From NCBI GenBank assembly GCA_000146045.2, contig BK006941.2, positions 416,001 to 480,000 of the forward strand: DNA of 64,000 nt. Direction: 5' to 3'. Source of the stretch: TPA_inf: Saccharomyces (Eukaryota). The position numbers were made by a program, and so were the translations under genes. This document shows positions 7,092 through 63,909 of this stretch, one piece after another (within the stretch, counting starts at the first letter, position 1; every line of letters begins with the position of its first letter). The notes below the pieces were generated by a model that was given only the letters and a program-made list of their open reading frames with translations, had not been told where the DNA came from and did no database searches.

Positions 7092-7205
7092 GGTTGTTTG
7101 GCCGAGCGGTCTAAGGCGCCTGATTCAAGAAATATCTTGACCGCAGTTAACTGTGGGAATACTCAGGTATCGTAAGATGCAAGAGTTCGAATCTCTTAGC
7201 AACCA
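7092..7205 (+). tRNA. tL(CAA): tRNA-Leu (anticodon CAA) with 32-nt intron
   Basis: GGTTGTTTGGCCGAGCGGTCTAAGGCGCCTGATTCAAG, then a 32-nt intron (7130-7161), then CTCAGG...GAGTTCGAATCTCTTAGCAACCA. A/B boxes present. T7 Pol III terminator at 7209-7215. Confidence 0.92.
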
Positions 7206-19679: not shown

Positions 19680-19749
19680 GTTAAGTATTTTTTTACATGC
19701 TCATCAAATACCGCCATTACTAACAATTGTACCCCGGGTATTTTATCAG

Positions 19750-20312
19750 CTGAACAATTAATAGAAGATTACTTGGTGTCACAATATAAACCATTTTCTG
19801 TAAATGATATAGTTCAGAATTTGCACAATAAAGTGACAAAAACAACAGCAACCAAAGCATTAGAAAATCTCGTTAACGAGAAACGCATAGTGTCTAAAAC
19901 CTTCGGAAAGATTATAATTTACTCTTGTAATGAACAAGATACAGCATTACCAAGCAATATTGATCCTTCTCAGTTTGATTTTGAAACTGTATTGCAACTG
20001 AGAAATGATTTAATAGAACTAGAGAGAGATAAATCAACGGCCAAAGACGCTCTTGACTCTGTAACTAAAGAACCTGAAAATGAAGATCTCCTAACAATCA
20101 TTGAAAACGAAGAAAACGAGTTGAAAAAGATTGAATCAAAATTACAAAGTCTACAGGATGATTGGGATCCAGCAAATGATGAGATTGTCAAGCGGATAAT
20201 GTCTGAAGATACGCTGCTACAAAAAGAAATCACGAAGAGATCAAAGATTTGCAAAAACCTAATTGCTACAATAAAGGACTCAGTGTGCCCGAAAAATATG
20301 AATGAATTTTTG
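19750..20312 (+). CDS. HOP2: HOP2 exon 2
   Basis: Intron 1 is 19680-19749, with TACTAAC at 19718-19724 and CAG at 19747-19749. The frame is continuous: A then EQLIEDYLVSQYKPF... through ...KNMNEFL. Confidence 0.85.
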
Positions 20313-20374
20313 GTATGTATTTTGAACATTTTTCGAGACCTTTTCTTTTGAATATACTAACGAAATCTTTACAG

Positions 20375-21466: not shown

Positions 21467-21934
21467 TTAACGAGAAGTAGCAGCAACCTTTTGGAAAGCA
21501 CCCTTAGCTTGTTGCTTGGAGAACTTAGAACTTTGAGTACCAGCAGACTTAGCCTTTTCAGCCTTTCTAGCAGCCTTTTCAGCCTTCTTCTTTTCTTTGT
21601 TGGCCTTCAATTTTTCTTCTCTGTTAGCCTTTCTAACTTCTGGCTTCAAAGATCTTCTTTCCTTGATCAAGTCCAAAGAAGCACCGGTAATTGGTCTTTG
21701 GGCCTTAACGGTTTTTCTAGATCTCTTCTTAGCAACTTCTTCGGTGATACCCTTCTTGTGATGCTTTCTGAATAAGACAGTCCAAGCGATTCTTCTTGGG
21801 TTCTTTCTTTGCTTGAACAAAGAGGCAGATTTGGAGTTTTGGAATCTGAAGATTTTGGAGTCACCACGGACAAACAAGGTACCTCTGCCTGGGTAGATTT
21901 TGGCACCTGAAAAAGAATCGATTTCAACCTTCAT
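21467..21934 (-). CDS. RPL24A: 60S ribosomal protein L24
   Basis: 155-aa ORF MKVEIDSFSGAKIYPGRG..., basic C-terminus. ATG at 21932-21934. Confidence 0.93.
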   Translation of the reverse strand: MKVEIDSFSGAKIYPGRGTLFVRGDSKIFRFQNSKSASLFKQRKNPRRIAWTVLFRKHHKKGITEEVAKKRSRKTVKAQRPITGASLDLIKERRSLKPEVRKANREEKLKANKEKKKAEKAARKAEKAKSAGTQSSKFSKQQAKGAFQKVAATSR

Positions 21935-22756
21935 TTTATCACTATATTAATCCACGTTTTTCAAACATATTTGAAAAAAAAAATGTTAGTAAGTCTATGC
22001 TTTTCATAGGTAGCCATCTTGTCAATATAAATAATGGTAATCCGCATGGTTGTTCAGGCGTTCGCAAAATTGTAGGAAGAGGAGAACGTGGAAATATGGA
22101 CTTTTTGCAAATTCAGAATTCATTTTACTAGGTTCTTGCAACATGGATAACATCTCACGCTGTTATTTTTCATGCTTCTCCATATCGTATATATGTAATG
22201 AAGCATTTTCATTGGGTTTCCTGCTCAAAGGTTGACATATATTATAAGTTATACTGGAACAAGCCACAATCCTGTCAAAGTCTAAATTCCGGTGTATTGG
22301 CTATCTGAAGCTCTCTCATATATTAATACATTGCTTTCTAGCACAACGCTGCCCTCGGTCGCCATTAATTATGAATCATCATCATATAGGGACATACCTC
22401 TCAAGTTATTGTCTTGGTGTCTTGCTTAACTTGGCAATAGCAACAGCGCAAACTGCGTAAACGTACTAAAATACACACCATCCGTTGAATATATCATGCA
22501 GTACATTGACAGTATATCACTTCTGGATAGGACGCCAACCGCCAGTCTGTGTGGTATTTCCTCCCGTCTCTGCGTGCCAGACGGGATCAGCCCGTCTATT
22601 CTCGTGTCGTCCTGCCTGGAGAGACTGAACCCCCATCTAGCACCGCAGTAAGGATCATTACTTTGTAGGCGGGAAATAAGAGGTTCAACAAGGACCAAAA
22701 AAAAAAACACTAAAATCTGAGATCAAAAATATGTGGTGCACAGATGTAACGTTCCA

Positions 22757-22771
22757 AAATGTATGGATGGT
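22757..22771. promoter_or_regulatory. Rap1-like site in the RPL24A/RPL30 divergent promoter
   Basis: AAAATGTATGGATGG is close to the reverse complement of ACACCCATACATT. T-rich tracts at 22800-22850 are typical of ribosomal-protein gene promoters. Confidence 0.5.
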
Positions 22772-23090
22772 AAGGTCTTTTTCCAAGAAACGTATCTTTT
22801 TTTCAGCTAGGGCCGCATTTAAATTTTTTTTTTTTTCAATTTTTTTTCCTATTGGAGACGGAATGGCAAAGCTCACGCTGGGCGATAGCACGTAACCACG
22901 CTGGTGTATTTTCATCCTAATCATTCTCTTTCATCTATTTCGATAAGCTACTTAATGTCGAAGTTTTAACTTCCATTTGTTGGAATGTTCATTACAGTTT
23001 ATACTTACTCCTTGCTCTTTTATAATATAACCAAACAGACCGGAGTGTTTAAGAACCTACAGCTTATTCAATTAATCAATATACGCAGAG

Positions 23091-23093
23091 ATG
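23091..23093 (+). CDS. RPL30: RPL30 exon 1 (ATG only)
   Basis: ATG is followed immediately by the non-canonical 5' splice site GTCAGT (23094-23099). Confidence 0.9.
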
Positions 23094-23323
23094 GTCAGTA
23101 TAACATGATTTTATAACTATTTCGCTTTATTCTTTCATGGGATTAGCAAGAAGGCTTGGAATACAAACATGAATTTTCAAAGTTTATTCCTGCTCTTGTG
23201 TTTGAGAGAGTCCGTTCAAAGGATGCTTCTCCATGACTGTGAAATAAAAGTGAGATATGCAAAAACTTTGAATAATCTACTAACAAGTTAATACGTTATT
23301 TTTTATCGTTTACATTTCAACAG

Positions 23324-24715: not shown

Positions 24716-24807
24716 TGCGAATTCTGTGGATCGAACACAGGACCTCCAGATAACTTGACCGAAGTTTTTTCTTCAGTCTGGCGCTCTCCCAACTGAGCTA
24801 AATCCGC
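24716..24807 (-). tRNA. tF(GAA): tRNA-Phe (anticodon GAA) with 19-nt intron
   Basis: The reverse complement reads GCGGATTTAGCTCAGTTGGGAGAGCGCCAGACTGAAGA, then intron AAAAACTTCGGTCAAGTTA, then TCTGGAGGTCCTGTGTTCGATCCACAGAATTCGCA. This is identical to the classic yeast tRNA-Phe. Confidence 0.93.
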
Positions 24808-30411: not shown

Positions 30412-32535
30412 TTAGGCAGATGGGTCTTCTTCGAATCTCAAATCCCAACCTATCTTTGGACCTAATTTCGGCAAGACTTCAGCGACACTTTGGACATCTT
30501 TATCACCTCTACCAGAAATATTGATAACCAAATGTTGATCAGGCTTCATCGTCTTAGCCAATTCGCAAGCGCCATAAACAGCATGAGAAGATTCCAAAGC
30601 GGGAATAATACCTTCTAATTGAGATAATAATTTAAAGCCAAGCAGAGCCTGAGCGTCAGTAGCTGCAATGAATTGAGCACGGCCAGTAGATTTCCAATAT
30701 GCCAATTCTGGACCGACACCTGGGTAGTCTAACCCAGCAGAAACAGAATGAGTATCATGGACTTGACCATCACTATCTTGCAAGACATAAGTCTTGACAC
30801 CATGGAAGACACCAGGTCTACCGGCAGTTAGAGTAGCAGAGTGGAACTTTGTATCTACACCATCACCACCGGCTTCCACACCCAATAACTTAACGGAAGT
30901 ATCATGCTCGAATGGTGAAAACATACCTGTAGAGTTGGAACCACCCCCAACACATGCAACAACTGCGTCAGGTAATTTACCATTGTTCATGGCAGCAAAC
31001 TGTTCCTTGGTTTCTTTACCAATGACACTTTGGAAAGTTCTAACCAAAGTTGGATATGGGTGAGGACCAATGGCAGAACCGACGACGTAGTAAGTAGTTT
31101 TCAAGTTAGTAACCCAAAATCTGAATGCCTCTGAAGTAGCGTCTCTTAGAGTCTTTGTACCATTAGTAACAGCAATTACTTTAGCACCGAGAATTCTCAT
31201 TCTGAAGACGTTTAAAGCTTGGCGACGAACATCTTCTGCACCCATGAACACAGTACAGGTTAAGCCAAATTTAGCACATGCAGTGGCAGTGGCAACACCG
31301 TGTTGACCAGCACCGGTTTCAGCAATAACGTTCTTCTTGCCTAATCTTTTAGCTAGAAGAACTTGTGCTAAAGCATTGTTGATCTTGTGAGATCCCGTGT
31401 GGTTAAGATCTTCTCTCTTCAACCAGATTTGAGCACCTTGACAATGCTCAGTTAATCTCTCAGCTTTGTGTAGTGAAGAAGGACGGCCAATATAAGAATA
31501 CAAGGATTTGAAGTCTTCCCAGAATGTGGGATCGGCGACAGCTTCATCAAAACCCTTTTCCAACTCTCTTAGACATGCATGAAGAGCTTCTGGGACATAC
31601 TGACCACCAAAGTCCCCAAATCTAATTGGGTGCTTGTGATTTTCATCAAATTCGTCCAGTATTTCCTTCTTAACGTTTGCGGACTTCAAGGACTCTTTTT
31701 GAAAGGCAAAGAATTCGTCCTTGGACAGAACCTTATGCTTAGCACCATTTAGAATTCCCTGTACATATTCCTTAGCAACGTCGTACCTTTTGCCCTCTGG
31801 AGCATCTCCACATAATGTGACGATTTTGGAACCAATCACTACACCGTCAGCAACACTACCAACTGATTGGAAATGTTCTCTGGTAGAGACACCAAACCCA
31901 ACGGCCAAAGGAGTATCCTTGGTGTACTTTCTGACTCTAGAGATGAGTTCATCCAAATCACTGGCCACAGAACTTTGAACACCAGTAGTACCCATTCTAG
32001 ACACAACGTAGACAAACGAATCGGCAATATGCGATAGTAATTCCAATCTTTCGTCGGTGGTAGAAGGAGCCACTAGTGGGATCAGGCTCAAACCATTATC
32101 ATTGATGTAGTTTCTGACCTTCAACGCCTCCTCTGGTGGCAAATCGACGATGATAAAACCATTAGCACCAGCCTTGGCAGCGTCCTGAATAAATCTTTCT
32201 TCACCGTAGTTTAGAATAGGGTTATAGTAACCCATTAGGATTATGGGTACGGTAACACCTTCATTTCTAGCTTGGGAGACCATTTCTAGAGTTTGAGGCA
32301 AGGTAACACCGTTTTGCAAAGCCACAGTATTAGATAATTGAATTGTAGGACCATCTGCAATTGGATCAGAGAAGGGCATACCCAATTCGATGATATCTAC
32401 ACCACCATCCTGGAAACCCTTGAGAATAGGGACAGTGTCTTTGACTGTTGGGTAACCTGCGGTCATAAATGTGACCAAGGCGTTCCTGTTTTCTTTTTTA
32501 GCGTTAGCAAATGTTTGTCTGAGTTGTTCTGACAT
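30412..32535 (-). CDS. TRP5: Tryptophan synthase (fused alpha and beta domains)
   Basis: 707-aa ORF. N-terminal alpha domain, C-terminal beta domain with PLP-lysine motif [13 protein letters not shown]. Confidence 0.95.
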
Positions 32536-63633: not shown

Positions 63634-63650
63634 GTGTGTGTGTGTGTGTG
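63634..63650. repeat. (GT)8 dinucleotide tract downstream of PMA1
   Basis: GTGTGTGTGTGTGTGTG. A second (GT)5 lies at 63689-63700. Confidence 0.85.
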
Positions 63651-63909
63651 AAGCTAAGAGTTGATGCCATTTAATCTAAAAATTTTAAGGTGTGTGTGTG
63701 GATAAAATATTAGAATGACAATTCGAGATGAAATTTTAAGCAAACTCTAGTAGGAAATAAGCGGCTTATTCTTGTTGGCTCCTAATTCTTTTTAGTGTAT
63801 CAGTTCCCATTGATAAAAAAATTAAAATTAAAATTAGAAAAATTAAACCAGAAAAATCAAGTTGATTAAAATGTGACAAAAATTATGATTAAATGCTACT
63901 TCAACAGGA

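Follow-up and report, generated by a model that had tools for sequence, protein, structure and literature searches.

The intron in the leader of the yeast gene RPL24A was reportedly first described by Mitra and Warner in 1984 (J Biol Chem, 'A yeast ribosomal protein gene whose intron is in the 5' leader'), whose gene RP29 we take to be today's RPL24A, and the intron of its paralog RPL24B is said to have been reported by Baronas-Lowell and Warner in 1990. The old name L30 is used where the 1990 RPL24B paper is cited and also occurs in several database names of L24 proteins. Yeast spliceosomes recognize the GUAUGU of an intron through base pairing of U1, and its UACUAAC first through BBP and afterwards through U2; the bulged A then attacks the 5' splice site, and exon ligation takes the first AG downstream. 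Some introns of yeast ribosomal-protein genes host snoRNAs, and helices that bring the branch point closer to the 5' splice site are a general property of long yeast introns, not gene-specific regulators. The intron of RPL30, the divergent neighbour of RPL24A, is presumably the known autoregulated intron in which Rpl30 binds a structure at the 5' splice site. About 22-24 introns make up the standard 5'-UTR set of yeast (RPS8A/B, RPS25A/B, RPS26A/B, RPS29A/B, RPL29, RPL32, RPS22B, BMH2, ARF2 and others), with which the RPL24A intron shares its consensus signals, and a published table of 24 such introns includes YGL031C at -463..-8, chrVII 438397..437942 (PMC3226532, Table 1). All 22 genes with standard 5'-UTR introns carry uORFs in the unspliced leader, and splicing removes every one of these uORFs in 20 of the 22 (Talkish et al., 2019; PMC6726248).

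The window analyzed here is a stretch of 64,000 nucleotides of Saccharomyces cerevisiae chromosome VII (chrVII 416001-480000), in which an earlier note, made from the letters alone, had picked out a candidate intron in the leader of RPL24A. A window coordinate plus 416000 gives the chrVII coordinate, an offset that was adopted because the published coordinates of the YGL031C intron, chrVII 437942-438397, match the window exactly. The SGD five_prime_UTR_intron of YGL031C corresponds to window positions 21942-22397 and is the same object as the feature studied here, with identical coordinates, strand, length and signals. The S1 Table of Talkish et al. (2019) lists it under 'Standard Introns' as RPL24A, chrVII 437941-438397, minus strand, 456 nt, 'Ares intron', and the same row gives GTATGT/TACTAACA/TAG as its signals, GT-AG as its type, 412 for the distance from 5'SS to BP and 44 for that from BP to 3'SS (PMC6726248). 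The RPL24A 5'-UTR intron is therefore already known from the reference annotation, the Ares database, published lists and RNA-seq junction tables, and the suspicion that it might be under-annotated did not hold, as it belongs to the 22-24 standard annotated 5'-UTR introns of yeast. Its value as a discovery is low; it serves instead as a positive control, in which a true intron was read from raw sequence with an error of one base. The parts of the gene and its leader are as follows.

21467..21934, minus strand: RPL24A coding sequence, 155 aa, Ribosomal_L24e, uninterrupted; the ORF is identical to S. cerevisiae Rpl24a
21935..21941, minus strand: exon 2 leader TGATAAA, 7 nt, between the 3' splice site and the ATG at 21934
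21942..22397, minus strand: RPL24A (YGL031C) 5'-UTR intron, 456 nt, GT-AG, 35% G+C, 19 AUGs inside
21942..21944, minus strand: 3' splice site TAG, the first AG past the branch site, with the branch A 44 nt away
21974..21983, minus strand: T10 (U10) tract, with one A between TACTAAC and exactly 10 T
21985..21991, minus strand: branch-site consensus TACTAAC, exact match, predicted branch A at 21986
22392..22397, minus strand: 5' splice site GTATGT, consensus in the sequence and invariant in five Saccharomyces species
22398..22423, minus strand: 3' end of exon 1, non-coding, AAGACACCAAGACAATAACTTGAGAG, invariant in the alignment of five Saccharomyces species

The gene lies beside an L7Ae-family gene (RPL30), AGA2 and the TBPIP/HOP2 gene, and its intron sits wholly 5' of the start codon, leaving 7 nt between the 3' splice site and the ATG. 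It has what defines a U2-type GT-AG intron: GUAUGU, UACUAAC and, after a U-rich tract, a YAG that is the first AG. The earlier note had the right 5' splice-site motif and placed it one base too far upstream, at 22398-22393 where the motif occupies 22397-22392, so that its intron of 457 nt (21942-22398) is actually one of 456 nt (22397..21942). The rest of its anatomy is read in the minus strand as it was described: TACTAAC at 21991-21985 is followed by the run of ten T residues at 21983-21974, and the first AG belongs to the TAG at 21944-21942, 44 nt past the branch point and 7 nt before the ATG. Exon 1 had been said to lack an AUG, and the 83 nt on the 5' side of the 5' splice site (22480-22398) are indeed free of ATG. 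The nearest ATG is at 22481, and the start of exon 1 could extend up to 22480 without adding an AUG. The stretch from the 5' splice site to the start codon has 19 ATGs, every one of them intronic. Exon 1 also contains an in-frame TAA, the spliced sequence reading CAA TAA CTT GAG AGT GAT AAA ATG.

How far these motifs could be expected by chance was calculated for the window. TACTAAC is expected 7.24 times per 128 kb (both strands), or 0.026 times per 460 nt, which bears out the figure of about 3% in the earlier note. GTATGT shows no enrichment (23 observed against 28 expected), and GTATGT followed by TACTAAC within 40-1000 nt occurs five times where 1.34 are expected. Two of the five pairs, whose 5' splice sites are at 30926 and 31600, about 8-9.6 kb from this one, have the look of chance matches, so that the motif pair is not decisive by itself. 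These numbers are also what favors one alternative, that GTATGT, TACTAAC and AG merely co-occur in an AT-rich leader and that RPL24A is transcribed from near its ATG and never spliced: about 1.3 such pairs are expected per window, and two of the five observed are found elsewhere in it with the appearance of chance matches. What goes decisively beyond chance is that the 3' splice site lies 7 nt from the ATG of a ribosomal-protein gene, together with conservation across species and published junction reads.

The conservation of the three signals, which the earlier note had proposed as a check, was followed in the orthologous loci of S. cerevisiae, S. mikatae (L020), S. kudriavzevii (L016), S. 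arboricola (L021) and S. uvarum (L018), together with the paralog RPL24B (L022). GTATGT (at -439 to -463) and TACTAAC (at -56 to -59) each occur exactly once in the 1 kb before the ATG of every RPL24A ortholog, and all three signals are kept in the five Saccharomyces species. In the alignment, 26 nt at the end of exon 1 show no change in any species, nor do the ~20 nt with which the intron begins, and the same is true of the branch-site context, which is ATTTACTAACAT-like in all five species, and of the 3' junction YAG/TGATAAAATG; the interior of the intron is poorly conserved. Lengths derived from the genomes, 446 nt in S. mikatae and 432 nt in S. uvarum, equal those of the published spliced junctions. 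The three splice signals are free of variants in 14 genomic contigs of S. cerevisiae, and the T tract after the branch site is polymorphic (T10-T12). The standard 5'-UTR introns have sensu stricto conservation and the removal of upstream AUGs in common with that of RPL24A, with no substantive difference, and the length of 456 nt is in the usual size range for introns of ribosomal-protein genes.

Published RNA-seq tables, from which we judged the efficiency of splicing in vivo, place a total of 66,246 junction reads exactly at these sites (Talkish et al., 2019; PMC6726248), and the RPL24A junction is among the best supported in yeast RNA-seq. Individual libraries gave 31,456 and 22,351 reads before the addition of rapamycin, and 7,042 and 5,397 reads 60 min later, a drop that fits the repression of ribosomal-protein genes noted by Talkish et al. 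(PMC6726248). The log2 ratio of intron to exon 2 coverage is -6.5 to -7.5, as taken from the row of the S2 Table for a rare alternative 5' site of the same intron with 4 reads (Talkish et al., 2019; PMC6726248), and the unspliced RPL24A signal therefore amounts to about 1% or less. Orthologous junctions flagged 'exact_match_RPL24A' are recorded for S. mikatae (446 nt, 485 reads) and S. bayanus (432 nt, 510 reads) in the S6 and S7 Tables of the same study (PMC6726248). The search for junction reads that the earlier note had suggested has thus already been answered by published data, and its main claim, a spliced 5'-UTR intron that ends 7 nt before the RPL24A ATG, agrees with both the SGD annotation and the 66,246 reads. 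The outcome it had named as speaking against splicing, transcripts that start just 5' of the ATG with no spliced reads, is contradicted by the junction counts and the low intron coverage.

With junction reads exactly at these positions, intron coverage near 1% of that of exon 2, an entry in the SGD annotation, and signals retained in five Saccharomyces species, the paralog and three more distant yeasts while the interior diverges, a chance co-occurrence of motifs in an unspliced leader has a vanishingly small probability; that reading is refuted by the published junction counts. We encountered no evidence against the RPL24A 5'-UTR intron, and it is practically certain that the leader feature is a standard U2-type spliceosomal intron, spliced constitutively and efficiently, in the 5' UTR.

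The closest counterpart is the 5'-UTR intron of the paralog RPL24B (YGR148C), at -399..-8, which like that of RPL24A lies wholly in the leader, has GTATGT, TACTAAC and TAG, and leaves a 7-nt leader before the ATG. In the RPL24B sequence GTATGT is found at -399, TACTAAC at -78 and the TAG ends at -8, in agreement with the annotation (PMC3226532). The same place of the 3' splice site in both paralogs indicates that the intron predates the whole-genome duplication. The two introns also differ: that of RPL24B is shorter (392 nt), its interior is unrelated to that of RPL24A, its exon 1 ends in the context C/GTATGT rather than G/GTATGT, and its branch A is 65 nt from the 3' splice site, so that two AGs are skipped (in CATGAGT and CACAGC; locus L022, positions 1920-2000).

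The arrangement extends to yeasts outside Saccharomyces, where the splice sites are predictions from sequence. The three species compared each have a single L24 gene. In Torulaspora delbrueckii its upstream region has GTATGT at -132, TACTAAC at -24 and an exon 1 that ends in ...CTTGAGAG/GTATGT, as in S. cerevisiae; the corresponding positions are -235 and -22 in Lachancea thermotolerans, and -316 and -33 in Candida dubliniensis. A GTATGT...TACTAAC...YAG pattern that ends 6-7 nt before the L24 ATG is therefore common to both paralogs and to yeasts as far as Candida. The T. delbrueckii L24 copy has DUF2838 and FAM210 genes as neighbours, which are those of S. cerevisiae RPL24B. A divergent pair of L24 and L7Ae-family (RPL30) genes is also found in L. 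thermotolerans (L029) and C. dubliniensis (L030), and the presence of this pair in Lachancea and Candida indicates that the head-to-head arrangement is ancient.

In the window, the divergent neighbour and the candidate promoter element between the two genes are located as follows.

22759..22769, minus strand: Rap1-like site CATCCATACAT, predicted, differing from the core at one position, within the promoter region common to RPL24A and RPL30
23091-23323, plus strand: 5' end of RPL30, exon 1 being the ATG alone (23091-23093), with GTCAGT at 23094, TACTAAC at 23278-23284 and CAG at 23321-23323

The intron of RPL30 (YGL030W; 23094-23323, plus strand) resembles that of RPL24A in being an intron at the 5' end of a ribosomal-protein gene, and the two share an intergenic promoter region. 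The RPL30 intron follows the ATG and has the non-consensus 5' splice site GTCAGT, whereas the RPL24A intron precedes the ATG and has the consensus GTATGT. In the promoter region, both the Rap1-like site and the T-tracts described in the earlier note are present, with A/T tracts at about 22822-22850, but the Rap1 match carries one mismatch and is not significant alone, because matches to the core with one mismatch number 11 in the window against 8.5 expected. The Rap1-like pattern is also matched spuriously by a (CA)n dinucleotide repeat at 63634-63700 (minus strand). A G+C-rich island (22520-22650) separates the Rap1-like site or the A/T tracts from exon 1 and reaches 59% G+C in 100-nt windows where its surroundings have 30-40% G+C; the upstream region of RPL24B is similar. 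We assume that this island may be the part of the ribosomal-protein promoter bound by Fhl1/Ifh1/Hmo1.

Splicing of this intron follows the canonical course. The RPL24A pre-mRNA would start at most ~83 nt upstream of 22397, and U1 snRNA pairs with GUAUGU at 22397-22392. The UACUAAC at 21991-21985 is bound by BBP and then by U2, and the A at 21986, predicted from the consensus to be the branch nucleotide, would attack the 5' splice site. The UAG at 21944-21942, as the first downstream AG, 44 nt away and past the U-rich tract, serves as the 3' splice site, and exon 1 (...CUUGAGAG) is ligated to UGAUAAA-AUG. Splicing thereby excises 456 nt with 19 AUGs and leaves a short, AUG-free leader for the translation of L24. 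We infer that the removal of upstream AUGs is a rationale for splicing this leader, which agrees with the class property that all uORFs are removed in 20 of 22 genes (PMC6726248). Given its 19 intronic AUGs, unspliced RPL24A RNA would be poorly translated and is probably degraded by nonsense-mediated decay.

Two further readings accept splicing and assign the intron an additional role. In one, the intron would host a separate functional RNA, a snoRNA or other ncRNA, or a small ORF that is released by splicing, for which its length of 456 nt and the general knowledge that some yeast ribosomal-protein introns carry snoRNAs could be cited. At the Rfam gathering score no family was found in the intron or the promoter, the matches in the window being two tRNAs elsewhere, and at an E-value threshold the region 21900-23100 gave one noise match, on the opposite strand (E = 0.38). 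Between species the interior is poorly conserved, the overlapping ORFs span only 41-61 aa and there is no excess structure, all of which makes a hosted RNA or peptide extremely improbable. The two Rfam tRNA genes, at 24716-24807 (minus strand, 92 nt) and 7092-7205 (plus strand, 114 nt), are apparently intron-containing; ARAGORN, in the configuration used, reports none.

The other reading holds that the intron is spliced but also carries a gene-specific regulatory element, which might mediate feedback by Rpl24 or another factor or form a structure that tunes splicing or the balance between the paralogs. Its models are the intron of the neighbouring gene RPL30 or other ribosomal-protein genes that are duplicated, and it centers on two conserved blocks.

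22362..22372, minus strand: conserved block ATAATTAATGG, with TAATGG invariant; candidate helix arm near the 5' end of the intron
22015..22037, minus strand: conserved block CCATTATTTATATTGACAAGATG, beginning CCATTATTTAT, ~45 nt 5' of the branch site; candidate second arm

Conservation in the five species exceeds the minimal signals, taking in 26 nt of exon 1 and ~20 nt at the start of the intron, and the block at 22037-22015 (23 nt) is nearly invariant among them. TAATGG pairs with CCATTA (22037-22032) in each of the five species' best duplexes, and such a helix would draw the 5' splice site near the branch point. When the helix was specified by hand, 81.5% of alignment cells were paired. Its covariation is not significant, however, as 87 of 500 shuffles reach the observed score and 6 of the 11 pairs never vary. 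Duplex energies in the five species fall mostly within the shuffled range, and the fold of the whole intron is ordinary, at -84.3 kcal/mol where shuffles average -87.8 (z = +0.69). The fold of the alignment has a positive (unfavourable) covariation term and partly pairs possibly untranscribed sequence. Rfam, as noted above, has no family in the intron, and bridging helices are by general knowledge a common property of long yeast introns. Compared with RPL30-like autoregulation, the RPL24A intron thus has strong conservation at the 5' splice site, but neither significant covariation nor excess stability.

Evidence from expression bears on the same reading. Both RPL24 paralogs were seen to fall somewhat on overexpression in a GFP screen, a point in its favor, but the authors credit protein turnover in such cases. 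RPL24 goes unmentioned in the main text of the study of intron-dependent regulation of ribosomal-protein paralogs by Petibon et al. (2016), which also argues against a regulatory element. Taken with the structural results, a gene-specific regulatory element in this intron appears unlikely. The narrower proposal, that 22423-22378 and the block at 22037-22015, linked to 22372-22362, form a gene-specific module that sets the efficiency of RPL24A splicing or the RPL24A/RPL24B balance, is quite unlikely; as far as we found, a regulatory module with these blocks has not been described for RPL24A. A regulatory role of the extra-conserved blocks would be a possibility of mild novelty only, and we found no positive evidence for it.

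A spliced transcript, as the preferred reading implies, was also looked for in other sequence collections. The exact 24-nt junction of exon 1 and exon 2 had 0 matches in metagenome contigs, where four contigs carry the start of the gene and all four contain the intron; these contigs are therefore genomic, and the lack of junction matches is uninformative. L24 proteins of odd length (P0004, 164 aa; P0143, 171 aa) were considered as products of cDNAs and rejected, since they come from unspliced genomic RPL24B contigs (Logan, ENA). A TAA>TAT SNP in the RPL24B intron of some strains (loci L023-L027 and L015) removes an in-frame stop, so that gene callers carry the L24 ORF 9-16 codons further, into intron sequence; the resulting entries in public protein collections are annotation artefacts.

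A 66-nt 'novel intron' has been reported within the RPL24A coding sequence, at 21563-21628 (minus strand), with 23 supporting reads (PMC4607428). A 10-nt direct repeat, TAGAAAGGCT, marks both ends of the segment, which does not start with GT and from its sequence looks like a product of reverse-transcriptase template switching or repeat slippage, not of splicing. In a natural variant that resembles RPL24B (P0004), 7 aa are missing from this repetitive AEKA region. Elsewhere in the window, intron signals flank the TBPIP/HOP2 ORF (19773-20351), with TACTAAC at 19718 (plus strand) and AG at 19749 on one side and, at the 3' end of the ORF (plus strand), GTATGT at 20313, TACTAAC at 20355 and AG at 20374; these are probably the known HOP2 introns.
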